Shown here: piece by piece, positions 32,525 through 40,935 of the stretch
Numbering within the stretch: position 1 is the first letter of the stretch
Layout of the letters: every line of letters starts with the position of its first letter
From: Vampirovibrionaceae bacterium NZW_1234
Lineage (GTDB): Bacteria; Cyanobacteriota; Vampirovibrionia; Vampirovibrionales; JAGQHJ01
Direction of reading: 5' to 3'
Length of the DNA: 64,000 bases
Assembly (NCBI GenBank): GCA_041697335.1
Contig: JBGUGD010000025.1
Location: 1 to 64,000 of the forward strand
The notes under the pieces: model-generated
What the model saw: only the letters and a program-made list of their open reading frames with translations
Database searches by the model: none
Told to the model about the DNA's origin: nothing
Program-made: the position numbers and the translations under genes

Positions 32525-34129
32525 CTAGGCTGAAGCTTGAGGCTGGGGCTCAAGAGCCTTTTTAAATGCCGAAATCTCAGTATCATCGGCATTGGTTCCA
32601 AAGTTCAGCTCAGCAGCAGGCAGGGCTTTGGCAATCGCTTCCATCGTCGCCACCTTCAGGCGGGTCGGTTGAAGGCCGGGCTCCGGCAGATCCTTCCGGG
32701 TGAGCACATGATCGATTGGTTTGCCCTGTTCAAAGTCATCAATGTCGGCTTGTGTGGCCAGCTTCAAGAATTGCTGGATGCGCAGGGCCACTGCATAGTC
32801 GACGCAATCCTGAAGATCAGTTGCATTTTTGCCTTTCAGGGCTTGCCCTTTTTCTTCCAGATAGGTTTGAAGTTCCTCGGCCTGTAAAATGCCATCATTT
32901 CTGCCGGTTTTATCGGTGGCTTTGGCCACGTTGCCATAGAGTTCCGGAGTGGCCCGCAGGCTAACCCGCTTTGTGGTAGCCGGTAAATCCTGGGGCAGCT
33001 GAATCTGGGCAAACGATTTGGTCGGACCGGGGGCTTCCGATGCTGCGGAATTCAGCGTGACGTCGGAGGAATTAATGGAAAAAACCTGGCTGGCATCGCC
33101 GGAGGTGGGTAAGCCAATCAACACCGGTTCTGTGGGGCCGGTGGCACTGGTGCTTTCAATAATAATGGTATTGCCATTTTGCTGGATTACAGGGGCTTGT
33201 GCGAAAGCGGCAAGAAGGGATTGGCCATCATTATGGAGCGAAGGCGCATCGGTTTGGATCGTGGATGCCGTTCCGCCGCCAATCTGACTGGTAATGTGGA
33301 AGGTGCCATTGGGGCCTGTTACGCTGGGTGCGCCAACGAAGACCACATTGTTGCCGCCTTGCTCCGCAGCCGGTCCCGACGCTCCGGATACTCCGCTATT
33401 GCCATTATTGCCGGCGTCGTCCTTCGGGCCGGTAGTACCTGTGGCTTTACCTTTGCCCTGTTGTTTTTCACAATGCGGTAATTCGTGATTCAGAATCAAA
33501 TCCAGGAATACACTGCCCAATTCGTCGTCATAGGAGCCGTCCTGGGCCAGATTGATAATCAATTCCTCCAAATCGGGTTTCTTAAACTCCTGGCCCGGAT
33601 ACTTCAACACGAAGTTATCGTTCTTTTTCGACTCTTCGTCGATATGAATAATCAATTCCAGGGCCGCAGCGGCGGCTTTTTTCAACGTCGCACTATCGAG
33701 TTTTTTGTCTTTGTCAAACTGTTTCAGCTTTTGCTCCAGCTTGACTTGGGTAAAATCATACTCGTCACCTTCCGGCGAGGTGAACCGATAGCTTCGCTCT
33801 GCTTCAGCGCTGGGCTTGCCCTTGGCCTTCTCTGTGCCTTTGGCGCCTTTGGCATTGGCTTTCTTGTCGTCTTCTCCGCTGCCACCAAACAGGCTCATAA
33901 TCCAACGGAAGGGTGCGGTAATCATGGACCATAATTTTGTCAGAAACGTTTCTTCTTCTTTTTTCTTGCCTTTGCCTTTGGATGCCGGGGTTTCGGTTTC
34001 CGAACCAAAGCGTGGCGCTATGACATCGCGGGCCTGGGCCATCCGGAGACCACCCGGTACGGATGATGCGGTGCGCTTAAAATTTCCGGAAACGATGTTG
34101 GTATTGGCAAAACCAGTTCTCAGGTCCAT
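32525..34129 (-). CDS. Hypothetical protein with RFG leader, paralog of 34284-35024
   Basis: MDLRTGF...RFGSE...PFRW...LIINLA shared with neighbour. Confidence 0.8.
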   Translation of the reverse strand: MDLRTGFANTNIVSGNFKRTASSVPGGLRMAQARDVIAPRFGSETETPASKGKGKKKEEETFLTKLWSMITAPFRWIMSLFGGSGEDDKKANAKGAKGTEKAKGKPSAEAERSYRFTSPEGDEYDFTQVKLEQKLKQFDKDKKLDSATLKKAAAAALELIIHIDEESKKNDNFVLKYPGQEFKKPDLEELIINLAQDGSYDDELGSVFLDLILNHELPHCEKQQGKGKATGTTGPKDDAGNNGNSGVSGASGPAAEQGGNNVVFVGAPSVTGPNGTFHITSQIGGGTASTIQTDAPSLHNDGQSLLAAFAQAPVIQQNGNTIIIESTSATGPTEPVLIGLPTSGDASQVFSINSSDVTLNSAASEAPGPTKSFAQIQLPQDLPATTKRVSLRATPELYGNVAKATDKTGRNDGILQAEELQTYLEEKGQALKGKNATDLQDCVDYAVALRIQQFLKLATQADIDDFEQGKPIDHVLTRKDLPEPGLQPTRLKVATMEAIAKALPAAELNFGTNADDTEISAFKKALEPQPQASA

Positions 34130-34283
34130 GACGTAATCCTTTTCTATCTCTCACGTGTTGGGTCGGTAGTGCTAAAAAATCCCTCAAGATTAAAAGTTGC
34201 TAGGTTTTGGAACAATTGCGAAGAATTTTACGAATCTCCCTTCAGCCAGAGGCTTCTGAGCTTTCGAAAACGAAAAACGCCGA

Positions 34284-35024
34284 CTATTCGTCAGCGCTTT
34301 TCGAGTCATCAACGTCCAGTTCCAGCGATTTCTGGTATGGAATTTCGTCTTTGATGAGGATGTCCAGAAATTCCAGGACTTTCGCCTTATCGCGTTTTGC
34401 CTCAGGTCGTGCCAAATTAATAATGAGCCCATTCAGCAGTTTGGTGGGCTTGGTCTTTTCAGCGCCGAAATTCACCACCTCTTTGCCCTGTTTAAGGGCA
34501 TCACTTGTCCCTTGTATCAGGCCCAGCGCATAATTGGCTGCTTCGGTAAAGACCTTTTTGCCGTTGGCTTCCCGGAATTTCTCTCGCTCGGCCCGATTGC
34601 CGACAGCCTGCATGAAGATTTTCCGGACCTGATCAAAATGAAACACCAGCGAGCGCTTTTTCCGGGTAATATACGTGGCTGGCGGATTTTCTTCTTCAAC
34701 GGTGATGTCCGTTTTCTTGGCTTTTTTGGCGCCTGCAGCCCCCTCGGCTTTTCCGAAGAAGGCGTCTTTTAGCTTGGCAAGCCAACGGAAGGGGGTGGCC
34801 AGGTAGTACAGAAGCGTTGCAAAAAAGCCCCGGGGCTTATCTTCGGCAGGCGTCGCGTCCTTCGATGTCTTTTTGGAGGGGGCGGCCTTGTCGGTTTTTT
34901 TCTCCGAGCCAAAGCGAATGTCACTCACATCTTGGGCATTGGCCGTTCTCAGAACCGGCCCGGCTTTCTGTTGTGGGGCAACACCACCGGAAAATGCAGG
35001 GTTAAATCCAGTTCTCAAATCCAT
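34284..35024 (-). CDS. Hypothetical protein with RFG leader, paralog of 32525-34129
   Basis: MDLRTGF...RFGSE...PFRW...LIINLA...FLDIL. Confidence 0.8.
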   Translation of the reverse strand: MDLRTGFNPAFSGGVAPQQKAGPVLRTANAQDVSDIRFGSEKKTDKAAPSKKTSKDATPAEDKPRGFFATLLYYLATPFRWLAKLKDAFFGKAEGAAGAKKAKKTDITVEEENPPATYITRKKRSLVFHFDQVRKIFMQAVGNRAEREKFREANGKKVFTEAANYALGLIQGTSDALKQGKEVVNFGAEKTKPTKLLNGLIINLARPEAKRDKAKVLEFLDILIKDEIPYQKSLELDVDDSKSADE

Positions 35025-35408
35025 AGGTCTTCCTTCGGTTGAGGTCTTTTGGGGGTGAAGTACTTGTAAAACACCCCTGAACCCAATTAATTGATAGTCA
35101 TGTAATGTTTTGTAAAGTTCAATCCATGCCGACGTGGTGATCCAGGGGCATGGCTCTTTATGTTTTCTGCCAGGCCCGGGCCTGTGGGCAACCCAATAGG
35201 CCGCATGCTGTCTTGGCGTCCGAGGATAACAACCTCACCCAAAACGCAATGGGGGTATCAATGCCTGTCAGATAGCGCTTTTATGCCAAATTCTAGCGGC
35301 TCGCGCAATTTTTCAGAGGGTGCTGTTTTCATTGAGCTACCTCGTTATAGGACTTGAGATGCCACTGACCGCACGTCGGGCATGGCCATGAATTAAGGAG
35401 CTTGGTGT

Positions 35409-35879
35409 ATGAGTTTGGATCCGGTACGCTTTGGAAGCCGAATTTTGTATGTCCCCGTGACGGATGGTTCTGGGGGAAAAGAAAAAGGGGGCGGCTCCGC
35501 AGCCGGTATTCCCAGAGCCGTATTGAACGATGTCTTGAGTAGTGCCAGCAACCATAACCGGGTGGCGGTTCAAGCCCAATGGCTCAAACATGCCGGTCAT
35601 GTGCAGGGCCACACTGCTTACATGTCGCCGTCTGCCAAGCCAGAGGGAGCGCCTCATGGCATTCGCCAGGATTATGTTCAACTCACCCTCACCTCCAAGA
35701 ACAAGTTGACAGGAGGCCAGCATCCCCACACCTTGCCCTCCACCCCGGACGAGGAAGCCCTGGAAGAGCATTTGTTAAAACTATTCCGCCGCTTCGGGCT
35801 CAACACGTCACCGGCCCCCAGTACCACCCTGGTGGCTGCAGCCCTGCTCCCCGGGACCAAGGTGAATGTGAAAGCCTAG
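35409..35879 (+). CDS. Hypothetical protein with RFG leader
   Basis: AAGGAG RBS; MSLDPVRFGS. Confidence 0.65.
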   Translation: MSLDPVRFGSRILYVPVTDGSGGKEKGGGSAAGIPRAVLNDVLSSASNHNRVAVQAQWLKHAGHVQGHTAYMSPSAKPEGAPHGIRQDYVQLTLTSKNKLTGGQHPHTLPSTPDEEALEEHLLKLFRRFGLNTSPAPSTTLVAAALLPGTKVNVKA

Positions 35880-35978: not shown

Positions 35979-37232
35979 CTAGACGTTCACGGTCCCCCTG
36001 TTCCGAGATTGAAACGGGTTGTCCTGACCCGAGGCGGGGTTCTTGGCGATGAAACTTCCCCCGAAACAGGTATCCAGGATCATCAGGGTCCGATTGTCGA
36101 AATTCTTGAAATGCGTGCCAATCAAGTCTTTCAGGCTGTGCTCATGAAGCATCTGATCCTTTGTTTTATCGGTCGGATGCGCCAACTGCAATGTGCCGCG
36201 ATGCATGCCTTCCGGGTCATCCCGATCCACGGCGTTATAGGATTTTGATCGTGAGACGGCATCCGTGGCATTGGGATTCTTCAGAGTCTCGTTCTTGGGA
36301 TCCAGAAACCCATGCCCGGAATAATAAATCATGGCCGCCGGGTTCTGGGCTGCATTGGTCTTGCCGAATTGTTCCATCTTGGCCATGGCCGCTTTCACTT
36401 CATCCGGGTTGGTTGCCACATGGATGTCGCTTTCCTTGAGGCCGTAATCTTTTATAAGTCGTTCTTTCATGGCGGCCAGATCCGTATCGGCGGCTTTATG
36501 CCCACTGCCTTTGATGAGTAAGGCGGTTTTCGGATTCTTATCGCTTTTTTTCCAGCCGTCGATTCCTTGATACTCCGAACTCACGGGCAGGGGTTTACGA
36601 GAGCCACCCTCGCCGCCGACTTTACTGCTGGCCTCGTCCAGACGCTTTTGGGCCGGTGCCGTGATGGCATCGCGTTTTTTCGACCAGTTGTCCCGCAGGT
36701 CCTGTTCCGGTTTGATGTCCAGCGCCTGCATCTCTTTCACCTGGGCAATCTGCCGATCCAGCTCGGCAACATCCTTAAGCCGCTTATCCTTTTCGGCTTC
36801 GGCCCGCCGTTGTTGCAACGATTTCAGCGACGGGGCATATTTTTCGGAGGTTTTGTCAATCTTCCTTTCAGCCTCATGAACCCCGGCATCGGCCTCTTTG
36901 TAGGCAGGTGTCCGCTTTACATTGTTGAGGGCTCTGCTGGCTTCGCGCTCTTGGTGGTTGTTATTCCAGGTTTCCTGCTCAAACCGATCATGGGCTTGTT
37001 GAAAGGAATCGCTCTCATTCAAGCCTTTTAAGAGTTGCTCCGTATAAAACCCGCCTTTATAGGGTGCTTTGGAGTTTAAATACCGGCTGTCGTAAGTTTC
37101 CTGTCCCTGGCGACCTGCGGAAAGAACAGCCATCCGAATGGGATAGGGTTTGTCCGGATCAGTGGTCGCACGCGTGTATCCCGAAGGTGCTTTCGCACGT
37201 TTCACATCTGACATAGCCTTGTCTCTCATCAT
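35979..37232 (-). CDS. Caspase-family (C14) protease, circularly permuted
   Basis: YYSGHG and LDTCFGG dyad near C-terminus; p10-like VLSAGRQGQETYD...GGFYTEQLLKGL at N-terminus. Confidence 0.8.
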   Translation of the reverse strand: MMRDKAMSDVKRAKAPSGYTRATTDPDKPYPIRMAVLSAGRQGQETYDSRYLNSKAPYKGGFYTEQLLKGLNESDSFQQAHDRFEQETWNNNHQEREASRALNNVKRTPAYKEADAGVHEAERKIDKTSEKYAPSLKSLQQRRAEAEKDKRLKDVAELDRQIAQVKEMQALDIKPEQDLRDNWSKKRDAITAPAQKRLDEASSKVGGEGGSRKPLPVSSEYQGIDGWKKSDKNPKTALLIKGSGHKAADTDLAAMKERLIKDYGLKESDIHVATNPDEVKAAMAKMEQFGKTNAAQNPAAMIYYSGHGFLDPKNETLKNPNATDAVSRSKSYNAVDRDDPEGMHRGTLQLAHPTDKTKDQMLHEHSLKDLIGTHFKNFDNRTLMILDTCFGGSFIAKNPASGQDNPFQSRNRGTVNV

Positions 37233-37378: not shown

Positions 37379-38074
37379 CTAGTATTTCAGCCAAAGCGGA
37401 TCCCATTCCGGACGAGGGGTCCATACCGGACCATTGTACTGGTGAATGTATTGTCCCCCCCAGAAACCGTCGGTATCGGTGCGGGCATTGCGTTGGCTGG
37501 TGACTTGGCCGTTATGATACAGGTGAATCTGGACCCCCTTGCTTCGGCCATTCGCCCGAGCGGCATCCTTGGCCTTGCCGTCGGGATCGAGGACAACGAA
37601 CACCATATTCTTCGGCTTGGTGCCCCCGAACTTGTTGTCGACCCAATAAAACAAGACACCGCCATTGTAGAGCTTAACGCATTTGCCAGGGACCCCATTA
37701 AAGGTGGTTGAGCCATTGCACGAGAGCGTTTTGTATTGCGGCTGGACATCCGCCCCGGCCCGATTATCGATGACCGAGGTGGTATCCGGCCCCAAGGTGT
37801 TCATGTACTTGAGAATATCGTCCATGGTGGTATCGGCCGTGGGCTTGTGATGATTGCAATACTCCTCATAGGTCTGGCTCAGACTGGTGATGAACTCCCG
37901 GTAAACCGCCAGGCTACGGCCGCTCTGGCTGGATTCCATGACCTTGGGGATGGCAAACATGGCAACGATGCCGAGAATTCCAACGGCCATCAGCAGTTCC
38001 GTGAGAGTAAATCCGGGTCGGGAGGTCCTTTTACGGCGAGAAACAGAGCGAGAAAAAGAGAAAAGGGGTGTCAT
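37379..38074 (-). CDS. Type IV pilin/pseudopilin-like protein
   Basis: Prepilin site G|FTLTELLMAVGILGIVAMFAIP; start MTPLF inferred. Confidence 0.85.
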   Translation of the reverse strand: MTPLFSFSRSVSRRKRTSRPGFTLTELLMAVGILGIVAMFAIPKVMESSQSGRSLAVYREFITSLSQTYEEYCNHHKPTADTTMDDILKYMNTLGPDTTSVIDNRAGADVQPQYKTLSCNGSTTFNGVPGKCVKLYNGGVLFYWVDNKFGGTKPKNMVFVVLDPDGKAKDAARANGRSKGVQIHLYHNGQVTSQRNARTDTDGFWGGQYIHQYNGPVWTPRPEWDPLWLKY

Positions 38075-38516
38075 GACCAAAGGTGTCTCCAAGGCGGGTT
38101 TCGTCCTGTCGTCATGCTTTCGGTTGGTGTTTCCGGAATCTTGATAATCTGCGAAGAACCTCCTCCAGATGCCTTGGATGACACCAAGGCAAAAAAAAAC
38201 CGTACCTTTTGGGATACGGCTACTACTTTCATTGGAAAACAAGAAAGGAGGAAGGAAAGAAGAAGAAGATTTGTATAACCACCTTCTTATACTTTAACTA
38301 TTCCCACCCCCAATATCCTCTAAACGGATTGTTTCAATAACGTTACAATCGGATCCGAAATTCCCGTGGGGGCGCATTTTGGTCTGGAGTTACTCCTTGA
38401 ATGTCACCCCGGCCTATGGGATACTTTTGCCGGGATCGGTTTCTGCAAGGCGACCCTGCCCCCGGAAATCCGATTCATCCCTGTTTAGGCTTTAAACACA
38501 TGAAGGAAGGGCGAGA

Positions 38517-39863: not shown

Positions 39864-40487
39864 CTACGCCTGCGGGGGATTTCCAAAGAGTTTGTCCAGC
39901 AGGGCCCCAATGGTGGATCCGGCCTTTTGGGCTTGAGCCACTAAATTAACCAGGGTTTGCGGTTTAACGACAATGCCGTCCAGCTTAACGGCTTCCTGGA
40001 TGCCGGAGGTTGCGGAGGCAGGTATTTTGGCGGCGGTCACCCGGCCCAGTTGTTCAGATAAGGCATCAATGTCGGCTTGGGTGGGAAGGCGTAAGACGTC
40101 ATTTCCTTGCAAACTGCCCAGATTGTCGTCATCGATCTTTACAATCCCCAAGGCTCCCAGATACCGGGCGGACTCGTAAAGGTCACTGAATTCCAGCGGC
40201 TTCCGGATCTTCCATTCTTGAGGGCGTAATTCGCTGAAGCTGGGGAGCCGAAAACCAGTTCCCCACCCATTTTCCATCATGCTTTCGGCGAGCCAGATGG
40301 CTGTAATCAGAAGCTTTGCTTTGGTTGTGTTTCGGCTGCCGGATTCCTTTAACAGATACACCGGTTTCAAATCCGGCTGTGTGTCCAGAAGCTCATGAAC
40401 GGGAATCGGTTTTGACGTCGAGCGGGCCGAGCCGAATCGGGCGGGCGCCGGAGGGCTCATTCTCGGGTGGAAGGCAAGTTTCATCAT
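39864..40487 (-). CDS. Putative DNA-binding protein (GntR-like wHTH plus C-terminal RHH-like region) with RFG leader
   Basis: GFRLPSFSEL...LYESARYLGALGIV; C-terminal GIVVKPQTLVNLVAQAQKAGSTIGALLDKLF; start MMKLAF inferred. Confidence 0.6.
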   Translation of the reverse strand: MMKLAFHPRMSPPAPARFGSARSTSKPIPVHELLDTQPDLKPVYLLKESGSRNTTKAKLLITAIWLAESMMENGWGTGFRLPSFSELRPQEWKIRKPLEFSDLYESARYLGALGIVKIDDDNLGSLQGNDVLRLPTQADIDALSEQLGRVTAAKIPASATSGIQEAVKLDGIVVKPQTLVNLVAQAQKAGSTIGALLDKLFGNPPQA

Positions 40488-40935
40488 GGGGTAAGTCCGA
40501 TCCTCATCATCACAATCTAAAGCAGGGGGTCGCGTTGCGACTGTCGTTACGGTATCAAAAAAGGTGGGCCTGATAAATCGCAAGAGTAATAAATCGCAAG
40601 AGTCAACGAGTGTGGAAATGTCCCCCCCAGCTTTGTCAGCAGAAATTGACGGTGATACCCATTTCCTTCGATGGGTAAAACGCCATGAGAGTAGGTAAAA
40701 TTAGCGAAGATCTCCTAAGAAAAAGCTCTAATAGAATAAAATATCTATGTTTATGGCTGAAAATAGTTATAAATAGATGAAAATGTTGCTTTAAACACGT
40801 TTAAGAACGAATAGACATGGGAATAATACCCATAAAGAAGGTCTTTTAAAAAGGTTCCATATGCTTCTCCACTCTCCTCAACCTACATCACTATCAATCC
40901 AGTCCGTCAATATCTGTATTGATTGTATGGATACC

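Follow-up and report, generated by a model that had tools for sequence, protein, structure and literature searches.

A bacterial C14 peptidase of the Vampirovibrionia with a p10-like segment ahead of its p20 half

Canonical bacterial C14 peptidases carry their p20 half ahead of their p10 half, and a gene of Vampirovibrionaceae bacterium NZW_1234 raises the question of whether a bacterium naturally encodes the two in the opposite order. The gene lies in a stretch of 64,000 nucleotides from contig JBGUGD010000025.1 (the window), where its open reading frame (ORF) occupies positions 35979-37232 of the minus strand, the strand of every part of the gene described below, and encodes a protein of 417 amino acids, here called P0001. 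A first-pass annotation made from the letters alone had read it as a naturally permuted caspase, with a catalytic p20-type half at the C-terminus and a p10-like segment at the N-terminus, and had suggested an effector or death-protease role. The p10-p20 order is that of the type III metacaspases of algae with secondary plastids, which, according to the accessible text of their description, were not detected in bacteria (Choi and Berges, 2013, PMC3734836). The accessible text of a survey of more than 11,000 bacterial p20 sequences reports no p10-p20 arrangement in prokaryotes at a p10 cut-off of 30 bits (PMC6426788), and a 2022 paper and a 2026 review, in their accessible portions, still place type III in algae. 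We found no description of a natural bacterial p10-p20 C14 peptidase in the literature searched, which was mostly open-access; members might still appear under another label in the sequence tables of PMC6426788 and PMC3734836.

P0001 contains all of the motifs quoted in the first-pass annotation, and its p20-like half (residues 235-394; 36051-36530) is delimited by Pfam, profiles and a structural model. The Pfam family PF00656 matches residues 246-390 with 23.0 bits (cut-off 21.4) over profile positions 20-128 of 233 only, which is the p20 part, and residues 1-100 searched separately gave no Pfam match. The catalytic dyad consists of His307 (codon 36312-36314), which follows strand 299-305 in the model, and Cys389 (codon 36066-36068), which follows strand 382-387, both in conserved columns. 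A dyad after the third and fourth core strands, together with a PF00656 score above cut-off, places P0001 in clan CD, family C14. Only 28 residues follow the Cys, so that the short tail had been recognized correctly but slightly undercounted at about 25. The C-terminal tail proper (residues 395-417 and the stop codon; 35979-36050) is of low confidence, with a predicted local distance difference test (pLDDT) score below 50 for residues 399-417, and is too small for a p10. Among the neighbours of the gene in the window, which are a pilin-like gene and unrelated ORFs, there is no p20 upstream and no p10 downstream.

The p10 lies at the other end of the chain. A profile built from 45 post-Cys segments of canonical p20-p10 proteins matches P0001 residues 23-117 (15.7 bits, E 3e-5), a score that none of 500 shuffles of P0001 reached (maximum 4.6 bits). 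In the reverse direction, a profile from 11 permuted rows matches canonical proteins of family f5 in the segment behind their Cys (L042, 33.8 bits; L061, 27.3; L050, 25.1; L055, 22.7), and a larger permuted-p10 profile finds its best match after the p20 in 28 of 38 canonical proteins (P0008-P0017 and P0046-P0073), with no match in the other 10. Against the sequences of the PDB the permuted p10 profile gave nothing significant (best E 0.9); a match to residues 188-216 of caspase-8, with E 1.7, was disregarded. The N-terminal segment of P0001 is p10-like, and p10 thus precedes p20 in one chain; the swapped order first proposed is borne out by reciprocal split profiles that agree with the model alignment, the p10 being detected by our own profile where Pfam sees nothing. 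According to profiles and model, the first part of this half (residues 29-92; 36957-37148) comprises a strand (34-38), a helix (62-71) and a second helix starting at residue 77. It is preceded by a hydrophilic leader of low confidence (residues 1-28; 37149-37232; pLDDT below 50 for residues 1-24) that carries neither a Sec signal nor an RFG motif.

The predicted structure agrees with this order; here and below, alignments were made within this analysis and models are predictions. The AlphaFold model of P0001, computed from a 44-row alignment (pLDDT 82.9, predicted template modelling score 0.78), was aligned by VIA with 48,161 solved chains, and its top match was cpCasp2, an engineered circularly permuted caspase-2 (8vp4; Z 15.6, root mean square deviation 3.9, 200 aligned), in chain order over residues 29-412 and therefore across both halves. 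A repeat with a second cpCasp2 entry, 9c2y, gave Z 15.5, and unpermuted yeast Yca1 aligned to residues 222-396 only (Z 9.7, 129 aligned). In Foldseek, p20-only metacaspase matches led for the full-length model, with cpCasp2 at ranks 10 and 12. As a control we folded P0020, the nearest complete relative without the large insert of P0001 (pLDDT 79.2), for which cpCasp2 occupied Foldseek ranks 1-4 (E 2e-6, template modelling score 0.59) and VIA rank 1 (Z 16.9, 196 aligned; next match 10.2). The two halves are thus predicted to pack into one caspase-like core. By sequence profile, the p20 half is closest among solved structures to type I and II metacaspases (Yca1, 4f6p; AtMC4, 6w8s; AtMC9, 8a53), with E-values from 2e-14, for AtMC4, to 2e-7. 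These enzymes align to the p20 half only, and have an eight-stranded sheet and mostly require calcium, according to the accessible text of PMC4357240. No strand follows the Cys-bearing strand 382-387 in the P0001 model, and many members of the family end 6-8 residues after the Cys; this feature of the region behind the Cys would fit the six-stranded caspase layout better than the eight-stranded metacaspase one, in which two additional strands block the dimer edge, whereas caspases (C14A) form homodimers through their last strand.

The same order of halves recurs in relatives at other loci and in other genomes. A word-seeded search with P0001 alone returned nothing among 5,807 candidates, and relatives were gathered by whole-genome and full HMMER searches. 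P0001 as query matches 7 of 49 genomes of the order as well as 12 cluster representatives, and a 37-row profile matches 22 of the 49, with none found in the other 27. In sixteen of these 22 genomes the proteins stop so close behind the Cys that a C-terminal p10 would not fit; in 13 of the 16 a p10 scores upstream, and in three (G017, G020 and G036) that score is weak or partial. The other six matching genomes contain only a canonical form fused to tetratricopeptide repeats (TPR). This separate TPR-fused C14 (L086-L091, family f3), in canonical arrangement and with DACR at the Cys, shows that the lineage harbours the two arrangements side by side. Families f6 and f9 of the class likewise have permuted members, and the p10-p20 order is a family trait in several families of the class, a patchy one within it given that matches were found in 0 of 189 small genomes of family f7 and in 2 of 19 genomes of family f2. 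Outside the class, in a sample of 251 genomes, all of the matches listed (24, in 21 genomes) start at profile position 115 or later, in the p20 only. The p10 profile alone matches 2 of 301, namely this genome and one canonical protein, and is insensitive, since known members in f9 were missed. A scan of viral sequences for the family pattern gave three pattern matches, none of which was confirmed.

The genome of P0001 itself has 11 permuted C14 genes, and no canonical one was found in it. Apart from one tandem pair they lie scattered and have no neighbour in common, in surroundings that by eye, and from ORF starts, are mostly housekeeping and orphan genes. The tandem pair (G000:C34:176098-177885; L004) consists of two permuted genes head to tail, the upstream one without an ATG near its start. 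We considered whether it might be an ancestral intermediate, as it reads p20-stop-p10 across the junction, and rejected this because both genes are permuted sisters (support 99). Identity across the permuted rows is about 20-30%. In a p20-only tree of 80 rows (23 of 103 were dropped as redundant) and 155 columns, made by a quick search under LG+G4, unrooted and composed of non-algal sequences, 47 permuted rows fall on one side of a branch and 33 canonical rows on the other (Shimodaira-Hasegawa-like approximate likelihood ratio test, SH-aLRT, 92; branch unstarred), permuted and canonical rows having been collected with one and the same profile. This tree is compatible with a single origin of the permuted clade.

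P0001 stands apart from its relatives in one respect. The first-pass annotation had seen a coiled-coil insert of about 120 residues between the halves, and a charged helical region of about 115 residues does exist (residues 93-210; 36603-36956), but it sits within the p10, between the second helix and the last strand at P216. The model shows a hairpin, predicted to be a coiled coil, with helices at residues 77-106, 109-148 and 152-205 (pLDDT about 90-97). Between the anchor columns A80 and P216 there are 136 residues in P0001 and 12-48 in 42 relatives (P0019 is without the region), and from P216 to the first p20 strand there are 19 in P0001 and 16-26 in the 42. The same Q-x-P motif and Trp close the p10 domain of canonical relatives, and because the linker after P216 is short as well, the hairpin must be assigned to the p10, ahead of its last strand. 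Alignments place that last strand (P216 motif; short strand 218-219), the conserved Trp227 and the linker in residues 211-234 (36531-36602), and about 19 residues join the old C-terminus to the old N-terminus. The hairpin of about 115 residues is predicted to project from the p10. It was seen in P0001 only, with no relative in the genome or among 103 collected C14 sequences; comparison with the Atlas gave scores of 0.77 only, a fold search gave generic coiled-coil matches only, and inspection of the flanks for repeats revealed nothing telling. Several paralogues instead carry long helical regions before the p10.

What such a protein does depends first on its active site. All 55 permuted rows and all 47 canonical rows have the catalytic Cys, and 53 of the former and all 47 of the latter have the His, L012 being left out of the permuted counts. 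Permuted members with the His replaced by Glu or Ile and the Cys kept (G000:C34:31637-32815, P0023 and L096) are possible pseudo-enzymes. In P0001 the pocket residues are D251, S305 and D387, and the columns of the two aspartates hold Asp in 45 and 46, respectively, of the 47 canonical rows, whereas of the 55 permuted rows only 27 and 30 have it, which suggests that the pockets of the paralogues may have diverged in specificity. The basic S1 pocket of the Asp-specific caspases (C14A) is not found in P0001, which has D251 and D387 in the pocket columns and DTC in place of QAC, the caspase motif at the catalytic Cys. Columns that are acidic in type I-like rows, and that we take to be the metacaspase calcium site by a mapping of our own, read R345, E364, H365 and S366 in P0001, and no Asp follows the Cys. 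On this mapping neither the four-Asp calcium site in the p20 nor the acidic p10 loop is seen, and with most of these acids absent a metacaspase calcium site appears unlikely in P0001. By our own mapping, D251 and D387 match the two pocket aspartates described for TbMC2 (PMC6426788, a second-hand source for that structure), and so acidic a pocket makes cleavage after Arg or Lys likely. The label "caspase" accordingly suits the fold of P0001 but not its pocket, which is acidic as in the Arg/Lys-cutting metacaspases and orthocaspases.

On the evidence of model and pocket, we consider it probable, though well short of certain, that P0001 is a caspase-family cysteine protease with a single-chain fold, no need of a cut between its halves and cleavage after Arg or Lys. 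Cleavage of the loop that follows the Cys opens caspases and type II metacaspases (PMC4357240, accessible text), and cpCasp2 is described as constitutively active, the permutation removing the need for that cut (PMC7760212, accessible text). As the chain of P0001 ends 28 residues after its Cys, this loop would already be open, as in reverse caspases; the protein would fold as one chain and a cut between the halves would be unnecessary. Control could then be exerted through location, through the basic N- or C-terminal tails or through a partner on the hairpin, rather than through calcium.

P0001 would further be one member of an expanded, diversified protease set acting outside the cell's own housekeeping, with another cell or the cell surface as its likely site of action. 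The points in favour are the expansion to 11 copies, the scatter as single genes, the very varied N-termini (among the paralogues hydrophobic segments, long helices and RFG-type leaders) and the variation of the pockets, which together suggest a specialised protease set and not one housekeeping enzyme. We put forward the outward-acting role tentatively, at slightly below an even chance. Two secretins in the genome favour export. A second flagellar-type export cluster (G000:C32:10113-21070; L111, L112) comprises a FliI-like ATPase, FlhA-like and FliH-like genes, one further ORF, a FliF-like gene and four rod-type genes; its FlhA-like gene is below both cut-offs (FlhA, 678 of 772 bits; SctV, 586 of 692 bits), and the FlhA gene on contig C2 passes the FlhA cut-off. 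We regard the C32 cluster as a candidate for a non-Sec export route. A cultured member of the class preys on algae (PMC4451040, accessible text). In its fullest form the proposal would be that of an independently permuted, pre-opened and calcium-independent reverse caspase clade of the Vampirovibrionia, an arsenal of 11 genes with diverse pockets and arms delivered to prey or host by a non-Sec route such as the C32 cluster, with P0001 aimed by its p10 helical arm; taken as a whole this is speculative and rather doubtful.

Several observations weigh against this reading of fold, mechanism and role. The canonical-p10 profile signal is weak, since of 56 permuted sequences no more than 12 score at least 10 bits and none at least 30, and the last p10 strand is only two residues long in the models of both P0001 and P0020. 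The pocket Cys three residues before the first pocket Asp is Ala in P0001 (A248), and loss of that Cys lowered the activity of AtMC9 by about 90% (PMC5756287, accessible text); Ala is also frequent at this position in canonical bacterial relatives. The algal p10-p20 enzymes need calcium and removal of the N-terminus and are not constitutively active (PMC5756287 and PMC9626678, accessible texts), and therefore permutation alone is no proof of an always-on state. As to role, P0001 has no recognisable export tag, lacking both a Sec signal (the most hydrophobic 19-residue N-terminal window scores -0.74, as the first-pass annotation had anticipated) and an RFG motif. RFG occurs in the first 70 residues of only 2 of the 11 paralogues, compared with 207 of 2451 ORFs (8.4%) genome-wide, which is not a convincing enrichment, and VirB4 and the sheath families of the type VI secretion system were not found in this genome, which is 95% complete.

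Among known proteins, P0001 is closest by profile to bacterial C14 proteins in the canonical p20-p10 order (PF00656; annotated as "orthocaspase" or as "caspase family protein"; for example P0008, P0046, L050 and L064), with which it shares a strand-helix-helix-strand p10 ending in Q-x-P and Trp, the dyad and the pocket Asp columns; the permuted proteins differ in being reversed, in ending 6-60 residues after the Cys, in their separate side of the tree and in their less conserved pocket aspartates. From a p20-only orthocaspase P0001 differs by its N-terminal p10-like segment. At 15.7 bits with our own profile, this segment would probably have fallen under the 30-bit p10 cut-off of the prokaryotic survey, whose profile is a different one (PMC6426788, accessible text). 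The engineered cpCasp2 (8vp4 and 9c2y), the best structural match of P0001 and P0020 in chain order, likewise has its old termini joined by a short linker (PMC7760212, accessible text), whereas P0001 is natural, only 10-12% identical to it and acidic, not basic, in its pocket. P0001 may thus be described as similar to an engineered reverse caspase in layout and to a metacaspase or orthocaspase in predicted specificity, a C14 member whose predicted chemistry is ordinary and whose architecture is unusual.

The type III metacaspases (GtMC2/GtMCA-III and PtMCA-IIIc; PMC3734836, accessible text) share with P0001 the p10-before-p20 chain, the His/Cys dyad and a predicted Arg/Lys preference, and P0001 could be a true bacterial type III metacaspase with one origin shared with the algal enzymes, whether through vertical inheritance or through genes passed between algae and a lineage associated with them. 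The same order of halves, a p20 profile nearest to metacaspases among solved structures, three p10 motifs ordered as in the diatom patterns (PMC8455989, accessible text) and the predation on algae by the cultured member of the class would all suit such an origin. The p10 consensus tested was SGCxDxQTSADV, together with Dx[QE]TSAD, GGAx[ST] and QxPQL (PMC3734836 and PMC8455989, accessible texts). [QE]TSAD, Dx[QE]TSAD and QxPQL occur in 0 of 56 permuted sequences, and GGAx[ST] and SGCxD each occur in 1 of 56; most of the calcium-site acids found in type I-like rows are missing, and in its p10 segment the family is similar to canonical bacterial C14 proteins. P0001 differs further in being bacterial, in its p10 hairpin and in belonging to a genome with 11 such genes. 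Since the p10 patterns and the calcium site are lacking, we do not file P0001 as a type III metacaspase despite its order of halves, and a common origin with the algal enzymes seems improbable, although, because the tree is without algal sequences, this idea is only weakened. About as improbable, in our judgement, is a protein that folds but has little or no activity and serves only to bind partners containing Arg or Lys; A248 in place of the pocket Cys and the large insert beside the last p10 strand could be read in this way, and an intact dyad is no guarantee of activity according to a review (PMC5756287, accessible text), but Cys and His are kept almost throughout the family at about 20-30% identity, unlike in the known pseudo-orthocaspases, which lose the dyad (PMC6426788, accessible text). 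That the gene is an artefact of assembly or frameshift, in which the 3' part of one canonical gene was fused to the 5' part of a second, can be dismissed with near certainty. No single contig covers the whole gene, and the four sequencing runs whose contigs tile it (labelled as hot spring or microbial mat metagenomes) are of one sample, possibly the source of the assembly. Their overlapping contigs nevertheless cover the gene with zero differing letters, gaps or joints, the two insert boundaries being spanned by pieces at 36877-37159 and 36353-36891, and the same order with a linker of 16-26 residues recurs in 42 relatives at other loci and in other genomes. The artefact is refuted by this family-wide order. 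A broken tandem or misassembly, and an N-terminal segment that does not pack as a p10, had been named at the outset as what would overturn the permutation; the contigs, the shuffles and the model speak against both, and the Pfam, profile and fold matches together with the family-wide order support the reading of P0001 as a naturally permuted bacterial C14 peptidase.

Other roles for a protease of the same fold and activity have to be set beside the outward-acting one. P0001 could be an in-house processing or regulatory protease that cuts the cell's own proteins after Arg, possibly at the RFG-type leaders found on many proteins of this lineage, with the hairpin docking on a membrane complex or on the substrate. 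Its lack of an export signal and its Arg-type pocket would agree with this, as would three RFG-leader ORFs that adjoin the gene, but because ORFs with RF[GS] near their start are so common in this genome (the 207 of 2451 mentioned above), this adjacency means little. A common processing enzyme would moreover be expected to be conserved and single-copy, and here there are 11 divergent copies with varying pockets and none found in 27 of 49 genomes, so that we hold this role to be unlikely, though less so than the alternatives above. The orphan RFG-leader ORFs near the gene lie at 32525-35879 and 39864-40583 of the window, and two of them (32525-34129 and 34284-35024) have identical first seven residues and look like paralogues. 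Upstream of P0001 is a type IV pilin-like gene (37379-38242, minus strand; likely start near 38074) that scores above the cut-off of TIGR02532, and promoter and terminator scans around the P0001 gene stayed at chance level. Many bacterial caspase-like peptidases act in cell-death or anti-phage systems (PMC8195603, accessible text), and P0001 could likewise be kept inactive, with a trigger that binds the hairpin releasing it to cut a pore-former or other effector. The EACC1-associated caspase model NF047832 does match it weakly, at 39.9 bits, far from the curated cut-off of 140. PADLOC, however, matches none of P0001 and four tested neighbours, no neighbouring gene is common to the paralogues, and a switch is hard to reconcile with an enzyme that is already open. 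We give a death or defence function little chance, and the effector or death role of the first-pass annotation was not borne out, there being no defence model match, no common paralogue neighbour and no export tag on P0001.

In summary, a bacterial family has as its trait the p10-p20 layout, which in the literature searched had been reported solely from some algae and from engineered enzymes. Type III metacaspases have been linked to secondary endosymbiosis through this order, stated in two surveys to be absent from prokaryotes, and a bacterial family with the same order removes that premise: either the halves were swapped at least two times, or the algal form has bacterial kin. Standard p10 models miss permuted genes, which consequently end up annotated as hypothetical proteins or as enzymes with a p20 alone. 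Engineered reverse caspases have natural counterparts in the compact members, with which it could be tested whether an open post-Cys loop suffices without calcium or cleavage, and the 11 divergent copies in one genome offer a set for asking how changes of the pocket alter specificity.
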